The translations under genes were made by a program, and so were the position numbers. From the IMG/VR virus record IMGVR_UViG_3300029878_000067: a stretch of DNA of 7,989 bases; one strand, 5' to 3'. The first letter of the stretch is position 1, and each line of letters starts with the position of its first letter. The stretch is from a virus. Taxonomy: Duplodnaviria; Heunggongvirae; Uroviricota; Caudoviricetes. Positions 1-7,989 of the stretch are shown here, one piece after another. The notes below the pieces were generated by a model, which searched no databases, was not told the origin of the DNA, and saw only the letters and a list, made by a program, of their open reading frames with translations.

Positions 1-2234
<2,234 letters not shown>

Positions 2235-2291
2235 TCATGCTCCATAAACGACAAAACCGCCCGCAGGCGGTTTCACATAAAACGTTTTTCA

Positions 2292-2471
2292 TCAACGACC
2301 AATCACCACAACCTGACCACCGTCCCCCTCGTCTGCCGTGCTGATCTCCTGAGAAGCCACCCGCGACCCCACGCGCATTTCACCGTACAGAACAGGCAGA
2401 ACATTGCCCTGGGCAACCATGTTATCCAGTGAGGAGAAATAGGTGTTCTGCTTACGCAGCTCTGCTGTCAC
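2292..2471 (-). pseudogene. I: Remnant: first ~6 codons of head protease/scaffold gene C (GTG start at 2471..2469) fused in frame to the C-terminal ~53 codons of tail assembly protein I
   Basis: Seen in sequence: minus-strand reading from GTG gives V/M-TAELR then KQNTYFSSLDNMVAQGNVLPVLYGEMRVGSRVASQEISTADEGDGGQVVVIGR and a stop. Established knowledge: TAELR is the start of lambda gpC and the remainder is the gpI C-terminus. Junction at about 2452 with AA microhomology. The 104-aa ORF in the track (2292..2606) reads out of frame through B sequence for its N-terminal half. Confidence 0.75.
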
Positions 2472-2751
2472 TCTTCTCCTCCTCTGTTGATTGTCGCAGT
2501 CCGGATTCAAATGCCGCAGCCGCCCAGGCGGGCGGTTTAAGACCGGCTGCACGGCGCTCCATCGTTTCACGGACCTGCTGGGCAAAAATTTCCTGATAGT
2601 CGTCACCGCGTTTCGCGCACTCTTTCTCGTAGGTGCTCAGTCCGGCTTCTATCAGCATCACCGCTTCCTGAACTTCTTTCAGACCATCGATGGCCATACG
2701 ACCGGAGCCTATCCAGTCGCAGTTCCCCCAGGCACTGCGGGCTTCCTGAAA
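2452..2751 (-). pseudogene. B: Portal protein B remnant, C-terminal ~99 codons only
   Basis: Seen in sequence: minus-strand frame gives FQEARSAWGNCDWIGSGRMAIDGLKEVQEAVMLIEAGLSTYEKECAKRGDDYQEIFAQQVRETMERRAAGLKPPAWAAAAFESGLRQSTEEEKSDSRAA then TAA at 2454..2452. Established knowledge: matches the remembered C-terminus of lambda gpB. No upstream portal sequence is present; the fragment abuts terminase A sequence out of frame at about 2751. Confidence 0.8.
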
Positions 2752-3533
2752 ACCCCGTTTTTGTTTCGCTTACGTGGCATGCTGGCCACCGGCTTTCCGT
2801 AGACGGATGCCCCTTTAATGGGGATCACCCGGAACAGCCCATGTTTTTTCGAGCGTTCATACACAATGGTCGGGTCAATCCCGCCAGTATCCCAGCAGAT
2901 ACGGGATACCGACATCTCTGCACCATTCCGGCGGGTATAGGTTTTATTGATGGCCTCATCCACACGCAGCAGCGTCTGTTCATCGTCGTGGCGGCCCATA
3001 ATAATCTGCCGGTCAATCAGCCAGCTTTCCTCACCCGGCCCCCATCCCCATACGCGCATTTCGTAGCGATCCAGCTGGGAGTCGATACCGGCGGTCAGGT
3101 AAGCCACACGGTCAGGAACGGACGCTGAATAATGCTCTTTCCGCTCTGCCATCACTTCAGCATCCGGACGTTCGCCGATTTTCGCTTCCCACGTCTCACC
3201 GAGCGTGGTGTTCACGAAGGTTTTACGTTTTCCCGTAAGGGTGTTGCGCTGCTTATGCTCTATGAAGTAGGCATAAACACCCAGCAGCATTTTGGAATAA
3301 CCGACACGGGCANNNNNNNNNNNNNNNNNNNNNNNNNNNNNNNNNNNNNNNNNNNNNNNNNNNNNNNNNNNNNNNNNNNNNCAGCGCCCTTCCTGGTATG
3401 CGGATTCTTTCGGGAGATAGTAACTGGCATCCGCCCATTCAACGGCAGTCTGTGGCTCCGGCCTGAACAGGGCTCGCAGCCCGGCGCGTACATCACGCCG
3501 CAGAATATCAATCTGACTGTTCGATATATTCAC
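2709..3533 (-). pseudogene. A: Terminase large subunit A remnant: N-terminal ~99 codons joined to a C-terminal nuclease-domain segment, then fused out of frame to the B remnant; contains a 69-nt N-run
   Basis: Seen in sequence: translation [15 protein letters not shown]...ARVGYSKMLLGVYAYFIEHKQRNTL is followed directly by TGKRKTFVNTTLGETWEAKIGERPDAEVMAERKEHYSA...MPRKRNKNGV. Established knowledge: in lambda gpA these two blocks are separated by roughly 300 residues (ATPase-domain region), so there is an internal deletion at about 3236. After KNGV the frame runs into B-derived DNA and stops at 2709. The start overlaps Nu1 by 26 nt as in lambda. Confidence 0.85.
3313..3381. other. Run of 69 ambiguous bases (N): assembly gap or masked segment inside the terminase A remnant
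   Basis: Directly visible in the sequence; appears as X residues in three ORF-track translations. Confidence 0.97.
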
Positions 3534-4053
3534 TCAGCAACCCCGGTATCAGTTCATCCAGCGCGGCTGCTTTGTTCATGGCTTTGATGATATCCCGTTT
3601 CAGGAAATCAACATGTCGGTTTTCCAGTTCCGGAAAACGCCGCTGTACCGAGAGAGGGATCCCGTCAAGAATACTGGCAATTTCACCTGCGATCCGTGAC
3701 AGCACGAAAGTACAGAATGCGGTTTCCACCACCTCTGCGGAGTCTCTGGCATTCTTCAGCTCCTGTGCGTCGGCCTGCGCACGCGTAAGTCGATGGCGTT
3801 CGTACTCAATAGTCCCAGGCTGGAGATCTGCCTCACTGGCAGCCCTGTAATCCACAACCTCTTTACGGAGTTTTTCATTTTCGATATCAGCTTCCCTCTG
3901 CGCATACCACTGAATTGCCATGGCGGTATCAAATACAGATTCAACGCCCTTACCACCTCCGGAGACGCAAGGGAGTCCCTGAGACTGCCAGCGTTCAATC
4001 GTTCGCGGATCCACGTTGAAAATTTCGGCAAGTTTCTTTTTATTAACCTTCAT
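3508..4053 (-). CDS. Nu1: Terminase small subunit Nu1 (181 aa), apparently intact
   Basis: ORF-track protein [36 protein letters not shown]... The C-terminal ~100 residues ([60 protein letters not shown]...LSEYIEQS) match my recollection of lambda gpNu1 nearly exactly; the N-terminal DNA-binding region is similar but diverged. Lies cos-proximal with a 26-nt overlap onto the A start, as in lambda. Confidence 0.9.
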
Positions 4054-4080
4054 GAAACAGTCTCACAATAAATACAGGGG

Positions 4081-4190
4081 CCGACATGAAAGTGCCCGAA
4101 AATGACTTTTTTAGGCGTTTTCATGTCGGACCTTTTACGGATTCGATATTAGAAAAAACAAATAGTTATGTTCGAGAAGTACCGACATGA
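4081..4190 (-). promoter_or_regulatory. cosB: three copies of a CCGACATGA-core repeat (4081..4089 direct, 4121..4129 inverted, 4182..4190 direct) with an AT-rich A-tract spacer (about 4141..4175) between the cosN-proximal pair; candidate Nu1 binding sites R3/R2/R1 with a bend/IHF-type site
   Basis: Seen in sequence: GCCGACATGAAAGTG, TTTTCATGTCGGACC (reverse complement TCCGACATGAAAA) and ACCGACATGATTTTC. Inference: the arrangement resembles the multi-R-site cosB architecture of lambdoid phages; site identity is not lambda-like, consistent with the diverged Nu1 N-terminus. Confidence 0.5.
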
Positions 4191-4229
4191 TTTTCCCCGG
4201 AAAATTTTCATAAATAGCGAAAACCCGCG

Positions 4230-4241
4230 AGGTCGCCGCCC
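4230..4241 (-). other. cosN: cosN 12-nt cohesive-end sequence (GGGCGGCGACCT on the minus strand)
   Basis: Exact 12-mer AGGTCGCCGCCC on the plus strand at 4230..4241, embedded in lambda-like flanks, about 177 bp from the Nu1 start codon (lambda spacing is about 179). Confidence 0.85.
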
Positions 4242-4464
4242 CGTAACCTGTCGGATCGCCGGAAAGGACCCGCCAACGACTTTCGCGTGCAGGCATTAAA
4301 AATTTTGCAGTTCCATGCCTAGTTGAAACCTCGATTTCTATAACATCCAATTTTGTAAATTTAGATATAGCTCAACTTTTCCCAATGTTTTCAAGTGTAT
4401 AAAAACAATTGGCGTTACGCCATAACACTATACTTAGGATAAGTAAAGATTTTAAGGAGTTTTA

Positions 4465-5532
4465 ATGAGTCAACATCAATATTACCCACAGCTGAAATGG
4501 AAGCCTGCTGAATATGAATCTCTGATGCTTTTAGATCAAACTACGCTCTCTGGTTTTACTCCGATCATTACCATTCCAGACATAGACTGGGATTATGAAA
4601 ACGAATGCTACAAGAAGAGTTTGAGTTCTTACTTATCTGACTTCGGTATTAACCTTGCGGCATCCTGGAAAGCCAATCGTCCTGTTTTGCTGGATGTTAA
4701 ATATTTAGATAAACATGGTTCGAGCCGCCATCATCCTCTAGATATGTGTATCCAAGATGCTAGAGTAAATGGTAAGGAAATTATCCCTGTTGTCTCTCCC
4801 GCATATTCAACAAACTATATACATGCTGTTCAACGCAACTTAATCAATGGGCTCGCTATATCTATCACCCCCCAGACATGGCACCAATTCACAAGTCTGG
4901 TTAACCACTTAAATATTCATCCTAGTTTAATTGATGTAATCATTGATTTTGGAGATATTCAAAACGCAACTGATAGTTTAAAACAACAAGCATTAAGCAT
5001 GGTCAACACATTATCAGGCCAAGCTCCGTGGAGAAACTTGATTTTATCTTCAACCGCATACCCTGCATCACAGGCAGGGATACCGCAACATCAAGTTCAT
5101 CATATTCCGCGCCATGAATACGATCTTTGGATGTATGTAGTACAGAATTTTAGCAATGGAAGAACGCCAAGTTTTAGTGATTATCCCACCGCTAGCTCTA
5201 CCATTACGAGCGTAGACCCACGCTTCATGTCTCAGTATGTCTCAGTGAGATATTCGAACGATACCTCATGGATCTTTGTAAAAGGTACCGCAGTTAAAGG
5301 AAATGGATGGGGCCAAACTAAAAACTTATGTACTACCCTTGTTAGTTCGCCAGAGTATCAAGTCTTTGGCTCCAAATTTAGTTGGGGGGATGATTACATT
5401 TACCAAAGATCATTAGGCGCTAACAAATCTGGCGGCTCTAAAGAATGGCGTAAAGTTGCACATACGCACCATATTACGTTAGTCGTGAGACAGCTTTATT
5501 GGTTGGCGCAGACTCAGCCTGCCAAGCCTTAA
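4465..5532 (+). CDS. Hypothetical protein, 355 aa, AT-rich cargo gene; function unknown
   Basis: Seen in sequence: long ORF with a perfect AAGGAG at 4454..4459, 5 nt before the ATG; GC content visibly lower than the flanking phage genes (by eye, not computed); AT-rich upstream region with -10-like hexamers (TATAAA 4398..4403, TATACT 4429..4434). Protein begins MSQHQYYPQLKWKPAEYESL; no nucleotide-binding or catalytic motif that I can assign with confidence. Confidence 0.72.
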   Translation: MSQHQYYPQLKWKPAEYESLMLLDQTTLSGFTPIITIPDIDWDYENECYKKSLSSYLSDFGINLAASWKANRPVLLDVKYLDKHGSSRHHPLDMCIQDARVNGKEIIPVVSPAYSTNYIHAVQRNLINGLAISITPQTWHQFTSLVNHLNIHPSLIDVIIDFGDIQNATDSLKQQALSMVNTLSGQAPWRNLILSSTAYPASQAGIPQHQVHHIPRHEYDLWMYVVQNFSNGRTPSFSDYPTASSTITSVDPRFMSQYVSVRYSNDTSWIFVKGTAVKGNGWGQTKNLCTTLVSSPEYQVFGSKFSWGDDYIYQRSLGANKSGGSKEWRKVAHTHHITLVVRQLYWLAQTQPAKP

Positions 5533-6094
5533 CTTTCCAGCCTACGCGTTTCTTTAAGGCTGTTCTGACTTCAAGCCTGAGATTCGCTATTGGAATATTT
5601 TCCGCAATAATATTCCATAACTCAAATCGGGGCTTGCTTTTGATTCCTTTGGAATAGCCCCATCGTTCAAGTACGTCGATACATTCATCTTTCCAAAGCA
5701 ATTGAGCGAGCATCAATGAGTTATGGTTTCGATTAAGCTTTTCTCCACGCATGTGCTTTATAAGAATGGCGCCTTTTGGCCCAACAGAAACCGTTTTAAC
5801 GCCCCACCAACCTGGGATTAACTTTAATGCTCCCTCAAGATGTTTCTCAGCTACGACAAGAGTAACCTTGTCCATTACAGAAGAATAATGCTTGATTTGA
5901 AGAGGCAAACGCTCCAAAGAGTCATATTCACTTTTGAGCTCGTACCCGTGTATAACACCATTTATTACAGCAATGTCTGCTCTACTGGCGCCAAGGGATA
6001 TGGAAAATTCATCGACCACAAGGCAGTCAGGATCTAAATGCGATTCTTTCAAAAGCTTATGATGCACCGCGAACCTAACATCTTGATCTTTCAT
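5474..6094 (-). CDS. Hypothetical protein, 206 aa, with a PD-(D/E)xK nuclease-like motif; AT-rich cargo gene
   Basis: Seen in sequence: ORF with AAGGAG (plus-strand CTCCTT at 6100..6105) 5 nt before the ATG. Protein contains LVVDEF ... SRADIAVING ... HGYELKSEYD, i.e. an acidic residue, then D, then E-x-K about 11 residues later, in an alternating strand/helix context. Inference: this is the signature of restriction-endonuclease-like folds. Convergent with, and overlapping by 59 nt, the 355-aa gene. Confidence 0.7.
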   Translation of the reverse strand: MKDQDVRFAVHHKLLKESHLDPDCLVVDEFSISLGASRADIAVINGVIHGYELKSEYDSLERLPLQIKHYSSVMDKVTLVVAEKHLEGALKLIPGWWGVKTVSVGPKGAILIKHMRGEKLNRNHNSLMLAQLLWKDECIDVLERWGYSKGIKSKPRFELWNIIAENIPIANLRLEVRTALKKRVGWKVKAWQAESAPTNKAVSRLT

Positions 6095-6122
6095 GACTTC
6101 TCCTTACTCCCTCCGTTACTGA

Positions 6123-6128
6123 ATTATA
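6123..6128 (-). promoter_or_regulatory. Candidate -10 hexamer (perfect TATAAT on the minus strand) about 30 nt upstream of the 206-aa gene start
   Basis: Plus-strand ATTATA at 6123..6128 is TATAAT on the minus strand; no good -35 match at 16..18 bp spacing; an adjacent tandem repeat occupies the -35 zone. Confidence 0.3.
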
Positions 6129-6132
6129 GCGC

Positions 6133-6151
6133 ACTGCATTTTACTGCATTT
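6133..6151. repeat. Tandem direct repeat ACTGCATTT x2 with 10-bp periodicity, immediately upstream of the candidate -10 of the 206-aa gene
   Basis: Plus strand reads CACTGCATTT TACTGCATTT at 6132..6151; one helical turn apart; located where a -35 element or activator/repressor site would sit. Confidence 0.5.
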
Positions 6152-6445
6152 GAGAGATTTGACCACTTCAATCACAAAATGCTTATCTGCAGCAACAAGA
6201 TTCATAGCCATACGACTATGGTGATTACCTTTTGTCTGGAAAACTGACCATTCCACGAAGATCAGATAGGTCTATAGAATCTTGGTTTGTCATAGCGTTC
6301 GCCTTACTTTGAGATGAACCTTTGCTGCATAGGAGATCAGCCCGTCAAGGCTCACCAGCACTAACTGACTACTCAAAGGCTCATTCCAAAGGGTTTGGTT
6401 CGACGTGGTTGAGTGCGCTGCGGTGCGCGGTGAAATACCTGTACA

Positions 6446-6473
6446 AAAATGCCCCGCATCTGCGAGGCATTTT
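6446..6473 (-). terminator. Terminator-like hairpin about 38 bp downstream of Rz, flanked by an A-run and a T-run (potentially bidirectional)
   Basis: Seen in sequence: AAAAATGCCCCGCATCTGCGAGGCATTTTCC. GCC/GGC and CGC/GCG pair around an ATCT loop with A-T extension; on the minus strand the stem is followed by TTTTTGTAC (5 U), on the plus strand by TTTTCC (4 U). No folding energy was computed. Confidence 0.42.
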
Positions 6474-6510
6474 CCTGAAAGTCACTTGTTAAATTTCAGT
6501 GAAATTAAAA

Positions 6511-6963
6511 TTATTTTAAGCACTGCGTCCTGATGTACTCCTGCAAGTAGTTAACCTGCGCGGTTATCTTGTCGATTCCACTTCGGAGACGGTAATAATT
6601 GAGTTCAGCATCTGCTGTAAGTCCTGGGCTTTCTCCATTGCCCATGCCGCTGGCTCCGGTCGTTGACTTTGCACAGGTGGCGGCGACTTGCAGGCGCTTA
6701 CGCCCAACAGAAACATCAGCACGTAGACTTTCGATAGTCGCGTTAGCATCAGCAAGCTCCTTTGTGTATCTTGCGTCGAGTTCTGCTACATCACGTTGAC
6801 GCTTCCGCATGTCAGCGATGATGTACGTGGCTTTATCGCGCTGTTCTTTATAGGTAATGGCATTATCACGGTAATGATTAACAGCCCATGACAGGCAGAC
6901 GATGATGCAGATAACCAGAGCATAAATAATCGCGGCGACTCTGCTCACTGATCTATCCCCCAA
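6511..6963 (-). CDS. Rz: Spanin inner-membrane subunit Rz (i-spanin), 150 aa
   Basis: Protein has an N-terminal TM segment [30 protein letters not shown] and a coiled-coil-like remainder; closely resembles remembered lambda Rz; sits immediately downstream of the endolysin with a 19-nt overlap. Confidence 0.85.
6564..6755 (-). CDS. Rz1: Spanin outer-membrane lipoprotein subunit Rz1 (o-spanin), embedded in the +1 frame of Rz
   Basis: ORF entirely inside Rz in another frame; signal-peptide-like N-terminus with lipobox-like VSAC followed by a proline-rich segment [16 protein letters not shown], the typical Rz1 architecture. The true start could be an internal Met. Confidence 0.72.
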
Positions 6964-7478
6964 CAGGCTAATGCGCTTTCCTGGTCACGACGAATAACCT
7001 GTCCATAGCAGTTATTTGAACGTATGCGGCAATCGCGCCCACCATCTTTTATCCACCAGCGAATCGCCTCGCATGCACCTTTACGATCACCGGCATTCAG
7101 CCGCTTATAAAACGTCGACGGGAAACACTTACCGGGGCCAATGTTATAGGGACAGAATGACGCTATACCCGCTTTTTGTGGTTCGGTCAGTGGTACTTTA
7201 ATATTGCGCTCCACCCATGCCAGCGCCTTATCACGCTCAATGGCGTTGACCTGGTCGCATTTTTCCTTCGACAGTTTCATACCGGGAAAAACGGGTTTTC
7301 CATCCACCATCGTGGCACCCCGACAGATGGTCCAGATGCCGGACCCATCGCGGTATGCCGTTGTGTGGTTACCTTCTTTTTCATCCAGAAACTGGTCGAG
7401 AATATCAGGCGCGGGCGCACCGACGGCAATCAGTGCCAGAACGGCAGCCGACAGGCCGTATCTGATTTTTGCGTTCAT
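6945..7478 (-). CDS. R: Endolysin R, T4-lysozyme-type (GH24) muramidase with N-terminal SAR (signal-anchor-release) domain, 177 aa
   Basis: Catalytic-triad spacing E-x8-D-x5-T in [23 protein letters not shown]; Gly/Ala-rich weakly hydrophobic N-terminus [16 protein letters not shown] typical of SAR endolysins; from memory, near-identical to E. coli cryptic-prophage lysozyme RrrQ and similar to phage 21 R. Confidence 0.9.
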
Positions 7479-7541
7479 GGATATTTATCAGGATTTATCG
7501 GTTTCTGCCCACGGACAGGTTTATCTGTTCCGGTCAGTGAC

Positions 7542-7892
7542 TTAAGGTTGTGATTCCGGAGGAGTCTTCAGAGAACCAGTAATTCTTCCCGGTAGCTTTC
7601 CTTTGTAGGTTATCCATACATTCTGCGCCTCTAAAATTACGGGGCGCTTTTCCGGCGACTGCTCATCCCCTTCACATAACCCGGCAGCAACATCCAGGAA
7701 GACCTGTCTGATGCTCATTCTGGCTGCTGCCTCATAAAACTCCAGCGCGGCACCTTCAACACGGTCCAGCGAGATGTCCAGGTCAAAAATTTCACCGTCA
7801 AAGCGTTTTTTGTCCCGTAACGCTAAAGTTACCGTAACTTTATTCTCAAAATTGCGGATCCCTTTCACAATCAGTTCATAGTTTTGAGTCAT
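7542..7892 (-). CDS. Small phage protein of unknown function between holin and endolysin (YdfR/DUF1327-like, assignment from memory), 116 aa
   Basis: ORF with start ATG at 7892..7890, 5 nt after the holin stop; its position between the S and R homologs mirrors the essQ-ydfR-rrrQ order of the E. coli Qin prophage as I recall it. No motif verified. Confidence 0.55.
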   Translation of the reverse strand: MTQNYELIVKGIRNFENKVTVTLALRDKKRFDGEIFDLDISLDRVEGAALEFYEAAARMSIRQVFLDVAAGLCEGDEQSPEKRPVILEAQNVWITYKGKLPGRITGSLKTPPESQP

Positions 7893-7896
7893 TGAA

Positions 7897-7989
7897 TTAC
7901 TCTCCCCGTGCCGCCTTACGACGGTCCTCTCTGATTTTGAAATACAGGTTAGTCAGATATGTCAGCAGCCCAAACAGCAGACTCCCCAG
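7897..7989 (-). CDS. S: Holin S (phage 21-type class II pinholin), C-terminal 30 codons; N-terminus beyond the window end
   Basis: Minus-strand translation of the window end reads [30 protein letters not shown] then stop (TAA at 7899..7897); matches the remembered C-terminus of phage 21 S / E. coli EssD. Absent from the ORF track because the start is outside the window. Confidence 0.78.

Follow-up and report, generated by a model that had tools for sequence, protein, structure and literature searches.

The stretch of DNA analyzed here (7,989 nucleotides of viral sequence, referred to as the window) carries a gene for a small terminase subunit (TerS, Nu1) that is best read as a natural recombinant of a phage 21-type and a lambda-type protein. 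The prophage around it is dead for packaging, and the Nu1 reading frame has probably stayed intact through the recency of the surrounding deletions and the small target that the gene presents, rather than through maintenance. Judged from sequence comparisons, this overall interpretation is assigned a probability of roughly 85%.

Identification of the small terminase gene

Nu1 occupies positions 3508..4053 on the minus strand and appears in the list of open reading frames as an intact frame of 181 amino acids from ATG to stop codon. Its start ATG at 4053 is located directly downstream of cos (cosQ-cosN-cosB), and its 3' end overlaps by 26 nt with the remnant of the large terminase gene A, which begins with a GTG at 3533. 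The product scored 299.5 bits (cutoff 30) with the Phage_Nu1 profile (Pfam PF07471), its residues 1-164 aligning to profile positions 1-164 of 164. Matches to sequences of known structure were obtained for 6HN7_B (E = 4e-41), 7LWR (2e-28) and 1J9I (8e-23) and span residues 1-54 to 1-98. The protein is 100% identical to the RefSeq entry WP_016230698.1, which in strain WP5-S17-ESBL-10 is adjoined by an intact gpA gene, and the 753 bp comprising cos and Nu1 are also 100% identical to the locus of this strain. Neither the reading frame nor the comparison with the WP5-S17-ESBL-10 locus revealed any disabling mutation in Nu1, in agreement with the initial annotation, which had described the gene as intact. 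A PADLOC match of Nu1 to mad1 was set aside, as it was marginal (E = 0.0035) and covered an HTH-like stretch of 27 amino acids.

A phage 21-type front and a lambda-type back

It had been proposed earlier that residues 1 to about 85 of the protein diverge from lambda Nu1 and that the C-terminal ~100 residues are nearly identical to it. Pairwise alignment with the lambda and phage 21 small terminases, the check suggested along with this proposal, revealed that the divergence is not uniform and breaks at codons 64-72. The alignment with lambda Nu1 (NC_001416) is ungapped and was extended to a three-way alignment with phage 21. Amino acids 1-71 are identical to lambda Nu1 at 41 of 71 positions (58%; 60% over nucleotides 1-213), while amino acids 72-181 agree at 108 of 110 (98%; 96% over nucleotides 214-546). 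The relationship to phage 21 gp1 is the reverse, with 62/71 identical residues in the front part (89% nucleotide identity to gene 1) and only 55/110 in the back part. When the first 72 residues were searched against phage genomes by tblastn, phage 21 gp1 and its relatives were ranked at 87.5% identity. The last clustered amino acid difference from lambda Nu1 is residue 71, which places the mosaic boundary at approximately codons 64-72 and not near residue 85. The earlier description was accordingly right about both halves and misplaced the border between them.

The lambda-type part of the gene (amino acids 72-181; 3508..3838, minus strand) contains the oligomerization and gpA-binding regions according to the alignments, and 39 of its last 40 residues are as in lambda, the sole difference being the final residue. 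It is followed toward the start codon by a crossover zone of mixed or ambiguous parentage (codons ~64-72; 3839..3861, minus strand), delimited by the alignment and the breakpoint model described below; lambda's solved DNA-binding domain (1J9I, residues 1-68) ends here as well. Synonymous divergence changes abruptly at this place. For codons 1-60, dS is 0.15 to phage 21 and saturated to lambda; for codons 81-180, it is 1.13 to phage 21 and 0.12 to lambda. This jump at the junction demonstrates the exchange of a segment and rules out faster evolution of the N-terminal half. On these alignments, Nu1 is classified as a natural recombinant small terminase whose diverged half is of the phage 21 type and not of a new type.

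Parentage of the cos region

The initial annotation had further suggested that cos-specificity determinants were exchanged together with cosB. To define the exchanged block, a two-breakpoint model was fitted to those sites that distinguish lambda from phage 21 and at which the window matches either one. In the best model, 119 of 131 informative sites inside cos positions 46-380 are of the phage 21 type and 192 of 212 sites outside are of the lambda type (Fisher p = 1e-55). The resulting block of ~335 bp (3862..4196, minus strand) comprises cosB and Nu1 codons 1-64. Over the 188 bp from cosN to the start codon, the window matches phage 21 at 155/187 positions and lambda at 115/188.

The individual cosB sites, all on the minus strand, were placed with the annotated phage 21 cos (OL657228) as a guide. 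R3 (4177..4192, AATCATGTCGGTACTT) matches phage 21 R3 at 15 of 16 positions, with G at both bp 56 and bp 59. The equivalent of IHF site I1 (4156..4168, TAACTATTTGTTT) was located by alignment to the annotated phage 21 cos and is a putative IHF-binding site. The inverted R2 (4119..4134, AAGGTCCGACATGAAA) is identical to phage 21 R2 at 16/16 positions, and R1 (4075..4091, TTTCATGTCGGCCCCTG) is of the phage 21 type and has the same core as the other R sites. R3, I1, R2 and R1 are thus all of the phage 21 type, which bears out the suggested joint exchange. The cosN side of cos (cos positions 1-45; 4197..4241, minus strand) is identical to lambda at 45 of 45 positions, four of which differ in phage 21. 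It includes the 12-nt cohesive-end sequence of cosN, GGGCGGCGACCT (4230..4241, minus strand), 188 bp upstream of Nu1. The cosQ heptamer GGGTCCT was assigned to 4265..4271 (minus strand) from the cosQ annotation of phage 21. The 21-type block is surrounded by lambda-type cosQ, cosN, the rest of Nu1 and gene A. The comparisons show that the predicted recognition module, consisting of R sites, IHF site and winged helix-turn-helix domain, forms a phage 21-type block within a lambda-type packaging region.

As an alternative without any exchange of modules, the DNA-binding half could be envisioned to have diverged from lambda through accelerated or relaxed evolution, for instance once A had been lost. 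The higher omega value of the N half compared to its nearest relative (0.34, versus 0.04 for the C half) would fit this idea, and these values are based on just 12 and 9 changes. However, synonymous sites are saturated to lambda in the N half, the same half retains its 89% nucleotide identity to phage 21, the non-coding cosB alongside changes parentage at the same place, and the identical protein adjoins intact gpA in many genomes. This explanation is given next to no probability; faster evolution of the N half was refuted by the three-way alignment, the dS pattern and the breakpoint model.

A fourth 21-type R-site core (CATGTCGG, in R2 orientation) was observed at 3612..3619 within the lambda-type part of Nu1, at codons ENRHV. 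Chance alone would give approximately 0.24 copies of this core in the window. The location is reminiscent of the remote rR2 site of N15, most likely by coincidence.

Specificity determinants and proposed function in intact relatives

The discrimination between lambda and phage 21 depends on TerS residues 20 and 24 and on bp 56 and 59 of R3 (PMC4669245). All four discriminating positions in the window carry the phage 21 alleles (E20, S24, G56 and G59), compared to Q20 and E24 in lambda TerS. The wing loop of Nu1 is GGGKG as in lambda, versus SKGSKG in phage 21; swaps of the wing between lambda and 21 are reported to be tolerated and to leave the burst size unaffected (PMC9026076). The C-terminal ~40 residues of TerS bind the large subunit (PMC9026076).

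From the genetics of lambda and phage 21, the following course of events is proposed for relatives with an intact packaging region. The 21-type domain would bind the 21-type R sites, with IHF bending the DNA at I1; the lambda-type C-terminus of Nu1 would then recruit lambda-type gpA, leading to the nicking of cosN. An intact phage of this kind would be expected to package with phage 21 specificity on lambda machinery, like lambda-21 hy51. For annotation purposes, the cos and TerS seen here are best taken as a phage 21 specificity combined with a motor of the lambda type. The locus offers a clean natural example of the textbook principle that, in lambda-like phages, the TerS DNA-binding domain and the cosB sites move as one unit and the TerL-binding half stays with the motor.

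Comparison with known systems

The closest known counterpart is lambda-21 hy51 from the Feiss laboratory, which carries the cosB of phage 21 and a small-subunit gene with its 5' half from gene 1 of 21 and its 3' half from Nu1, and is a viable helper with 21 specificity (PMC4669245). This hybrid established that the TerL-binding domain resides in TerS's C-terminal half (PMC9026076). The window shares its arrangement of 21 cosB, 21 front half and lambda Nu1 back half together with lambda gpA. The hybrid by which the TerS domains were defined in the laboratory has also arisen in nature. They differ in that hy51 was made in the laboratory and the window's version is natural, with a relative of 21 (89% nucleotide identity) and not phage 21 itself as donor. 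In addition, the entire left end (~600 bp) is exchanged in hy51, whereas the left junction in the window lies inside cos, between cosN and R3.

Phage 21 gp1 (7LWR) resembles the window protein over amino acids 1-71, with residues 8-29, including the HTH recognition helix, being identical; the R2 site and the CATGTCGG R-site core are identical as well. It departs from the window in the wing and in amino acids 72-181, and its partner large subunit is gp2, compared to a lambda-type subunit in the lineage of the window. Lambda Nu1 (1J9I; 6HN7 chain B) shares with the window the length of 181 amino acids, the overlap of the gene with the start of A, the 98% identity of amino acids 72-181 and identical cosN and cosQ sequences. 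In contrast, its DNA-binding domain is 58% identical, residues Q20 and E24 are replaced by E and S in the window, and the R-site sequence differs.

Two homologs in K-12, nohD (in DLP12) and nohA (in Qin), are also found beside cos in defective lambdoid prophages with a truncated A, which in K-12 is the aaaD pseudogene fused to tail-fibre genes. Unlike the window protein, they are purely of the lambda type over their full length. NohD agrees with lambda at 70/71 and 108/110 positions of the two parts, and NohA has lost its last codons. Neither nohD nor nohA has a function annotated. A looser resemblance exists to the Rpp protein of PICIs (bound to TerS in 6HN7), a small winged-HTH protein encoded beside a cos site in an element without a large terminase of its own, to which a helper TerL is usable (PMC9026076). 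However, Rpp lacks a TerL-binding tail and heterodimerizes with the helper TerS, while the window protein is a full TerS. The resemblance is one of principle only.

Distribution of the chimera

The exact 181-aa protein was found on 457 contigs of the protein collection, where it is named terminase small subunit. In all ten contexts examined, an intact gene for the 641-aa gpA follows (10/10), together with gpW and a portal gene, the portal gene being fragmented in one of them. The 753-bp cassette of cos and Nu1 is present in 540 of 5,426 complete E. coli genomes at a coverage of at least 80%; carriers include O157:H7 strains and UPEC 536 at ~98% identity. The isolated phage IdasGreatGrand contains the cassette with 99% identity and an open A of 641 codons. 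The chimera is hence an established TerS variant of an active and widely distributed phage lineage and not a by-product of the decay seen in the window. As a kind, the hybrid TerS is already known: it is common in E. coli prophages and is the natural counterpart of lambda-21 hy51.

Loss of the large terminase gene

The prophage in the window is dead for packaging, with most of A, W and B, and of the genes for head and tail up to I, gone. Deletions were mapped against the WP5-S17-ESBL-10 relative (locus L007), in which A is intact. The remnant of A (2709..3533, minus strand, GTG start) retains only amino acids 1-102 and approximately 350-512. A first deletion of 741 bp removed A codons ~103-349, including the greater part of the ATPase domain, in frame (junction 3237/3238). 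A second deletion of 1,888 bp cost A its 3' end and also took W and the larger part of B (junction 2751/2752), and a third of ~10.8 kb extends from the start of C into I (junction ~2452-2455). All three junctions show 2-4 bp of microhomology. What is left of the portal gene B is its 3' end (2452..2751, minus strand), which abuts A at the 1,888-bp deletion and the 3' part of the tail gene I at the ~10.8-kb one. The first two deletions confirm the earlier statement that the partner A is destroyed and Nu1 is an orphan. An intact large subunit with ATPase and nuclease next to TerS is absent from the window, while relatives carry the intact 641-aa gpA. An intact Nu1 is no evidence of prophage activity. 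The L007 relative is already frameshifted in B, C, Z and H, which indicates that the lineage was in decay before these deletions.

The A remnant also contains a run of 69 N (3313..3381), which takes the place of 78 bases in the relative and hides sequence immediately ahead of the Walker A motif (KSARVGYS). Its length is not that of the relative, and it has the appearance of masked sequence or of a gap in a scaffold. The verdict that A is non-functional is independent of it. Exact-protein lookup of the open reading frame that spans the I/B fusion (2292..2606) returned no record. An 81-aa open reading frame at the 3' end of the portal gene (2452..2697, minus strand) is a separate gene call in very many assemblies (1,217 index blocks). 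At each of the six places viewed, a split or truncation of the portal gene lies just upstream of it, and the defect appears to be widely inherited.

Comparison of gpA from the WP5 relative with lambda gpA in bins of 50 residues gave 42/50 identities for the first bin and at least 49/50 for each of the other complete ones, with no difference among the aligned residues of the short final bin. The eight differences in the first 50 residues of the lineage fall in a patch at codons 8-37 (window ~3420..3515), with for example IDILRRD in place of VNRLRHF. This patch is located in what has been described as the TerS-binding end of gpA, even though the C-terminus of Nu1 is lambda-identical. Beyond the first 50 residues, gpA is at least 98% identical to lambda.

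Recent decay as the probable explanation for an intact Nu1

The intact state of Nu1 had been attributed to either recent decay or a retained function. The data favor the first of these and lend no support to the second. Over 4,539 bp (3382..7920), the window differs from the relative with intact A by 2 mismatches, both in Rz and none in Nu1 or cos. A search of 5,426 complete E. coli genomes found the deletion junctions in none, and a 33-nt sequence across the 741-bp junction had no match in the collection of species-representative genomes. The near identity to a relative with intact A, combined with junctions that are not shared, indicates that the deletions are very young. Nu1 would then have had no time to accumulate damage, which accounts for its intact reading frame. 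At the local rate of 2 changes per 4,539 bp, ~0.2 substitutions would be expected to have arisen in Nu1 after it parted from the intact relative and 0 were observed, so this count has no power for or against purifying selection after orphaning.

Orphaned Nu1 genes of the lambda type are commonplace, as the copy number declines from Nu1 into A: in the complete E. coli genomes, the lambda-type Nu1 C-half was detected at 6,126 places, mid-A at 5,231 and the A 3' end at 4,545. These counts imply roughly 900-1,600 loci at which a lambda-type or chimeric Nu1 adjoins a deleted or frameshifted A. Nu1 is intact next to a broken or truncated A in K-12 nohD and in two other prophage loci (L021 and L023), which could also be read as retention. 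It is broken in two further decayed prophages (L020 and L022, frameshifted after residue ~133) and in K-12 nohA, where the last codons are deleted. These outcomes are mixed and come from a small sample, and they do not suggest strong maintenance. A promoter and terminator scan around Nu1 yielded 3 promoter-like matches compared to 5.9 expected from shuffled controls, with no convincing promoter of its own.

Two other accounts of the orphan gene have to be weighed against recent decay. One holds that the orphan state is an artefact of assembly or data processing, in which misassembly or masking created both the A deletions and the N-run and the true A is intact. The 69-N run within A, with a length unlike the 78 bases of the relative, would agree with such an origin, as would the finding that the 741-bp junction occurs in no complete E. 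coli genome and in no species-representative genome. Nevertheless, the three junctions are clean, with short microhomologies and no repeats that could mislead an assembler; similar deletions truncating A are common in annotated complete genomes (TOE17; K-12 aaaD); and the close relative was decaying already, as its frameshifts in B, C, Z and H demonstrate. An artefact is thus considered very unlikely.

The other account, which is regarded as very unlikely, is that the orphan TerS is expressed and has a retained function, for example if the resident late operon is activated by Q of a superinfecting lambdoid phage. TerS would then bind the resident 21-type cosB and/or capture the lambda-type gpA of the invader, so that the invader's terminase is diverted or poisoned. 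The result would be interference, or helper-dependent packaging from the resident cos, by a logic like that of satellite TerS or Rpp. Pairing with lambda-type gpA is plausible given that amino acids 72-181 are nearly those of lambda and the last 40 differ at the final residue only, and the complete cosQ-cosN-cosB is kept beside Nu1, but the promoter scan stayed below the number of matches expected by chance. The frequency of orphan lambda-type Nu1 genes could be counted in favor of a function, yet the fall in copy number from Nu1 to A fits deletions that spare the cos-proximal end; likewise, the intact nohD of K-12 is set against Nu1 genes that are themselves broken in L020, L022 and nohA. For PICIs, it is established that small DNA-binding partners redirect terminases (PMC9026076; PDB 6HN7), and a prophage cos of matching specificity is reported to waste the packaging of an infecting phage (PMC4669245). 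The near identity of the window to the relative with intact A nevertheless explains the intactness of Nu1 without selection. By analogy with these systems, the resident TerS might act as a decoy that captures gpA of an invading lambda-type phage via its C-terminus and directs it to the resident cosB; this specific form is considered very improbable. If it were true, a lower yield of the invader or the packaging of chromosomal DNA from a dead prophage would be expected, and prophage debris would have given rise to a minimal satellite-like interference module. Recent decay, with young deletions sparing a small gene, remains the preferred reading.

Neighboring genes in the window

Two convergent genes (4465..5532, plus strand, and 5474..6094, minus strand) overlap by 59 bp at their 3' ends and occupy the moron position between Rz and cos, where bor is found in lambda and phage 21. 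The 355-aa protein encoded at 4465..5532 matches the Pfam family Beta_protein (PF14350) and, in PADLOC, PD-Lambda-2_C (E = 4e-32) and 'beta'; in RefSeq it is a beta family protein. The 206-aa protein encoded at 5474..6094 has no Pfam match, is matched to 'cll' in PADLOC (E = 3e-31) and is a sce7726 family protein in RefSeq. The pair may represent a two-gene anti-phage cargo. It is common to several relatives, and others without the pair carry bor and a TonB_C gene.

The lysis cassette (6511..7892, minus strand) looks intact and encodes a lysozyme of 177 amino acids with a hydrophobic N-terminus (6945..7478), Rz (6511..6963), an embedded Rz1 lipoprotein reading frame (6564..6755) and DUF1327/YdfR (7542..7892). 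Of the 17 differences from the WP5 relative over 3382..7989, 15 fall within the 64 bases of 7921..7984. This clustering indicates that a further mosaic junction lies close to the YdfR/DUF1327 gene, at its upstream end. At the other end of the window, positions 1..2455 contain part of the tail gene J and the 3' part of I. A 369-aa reading frame at 30..1139 (plus strand) runs antisense to J and is probably spurious. The identity of positions 1..2455 to the WP5 relative is 95.7%, compared to 99.9% for the region from cos to the lysis genes, which points to a different recent history of the tail end.
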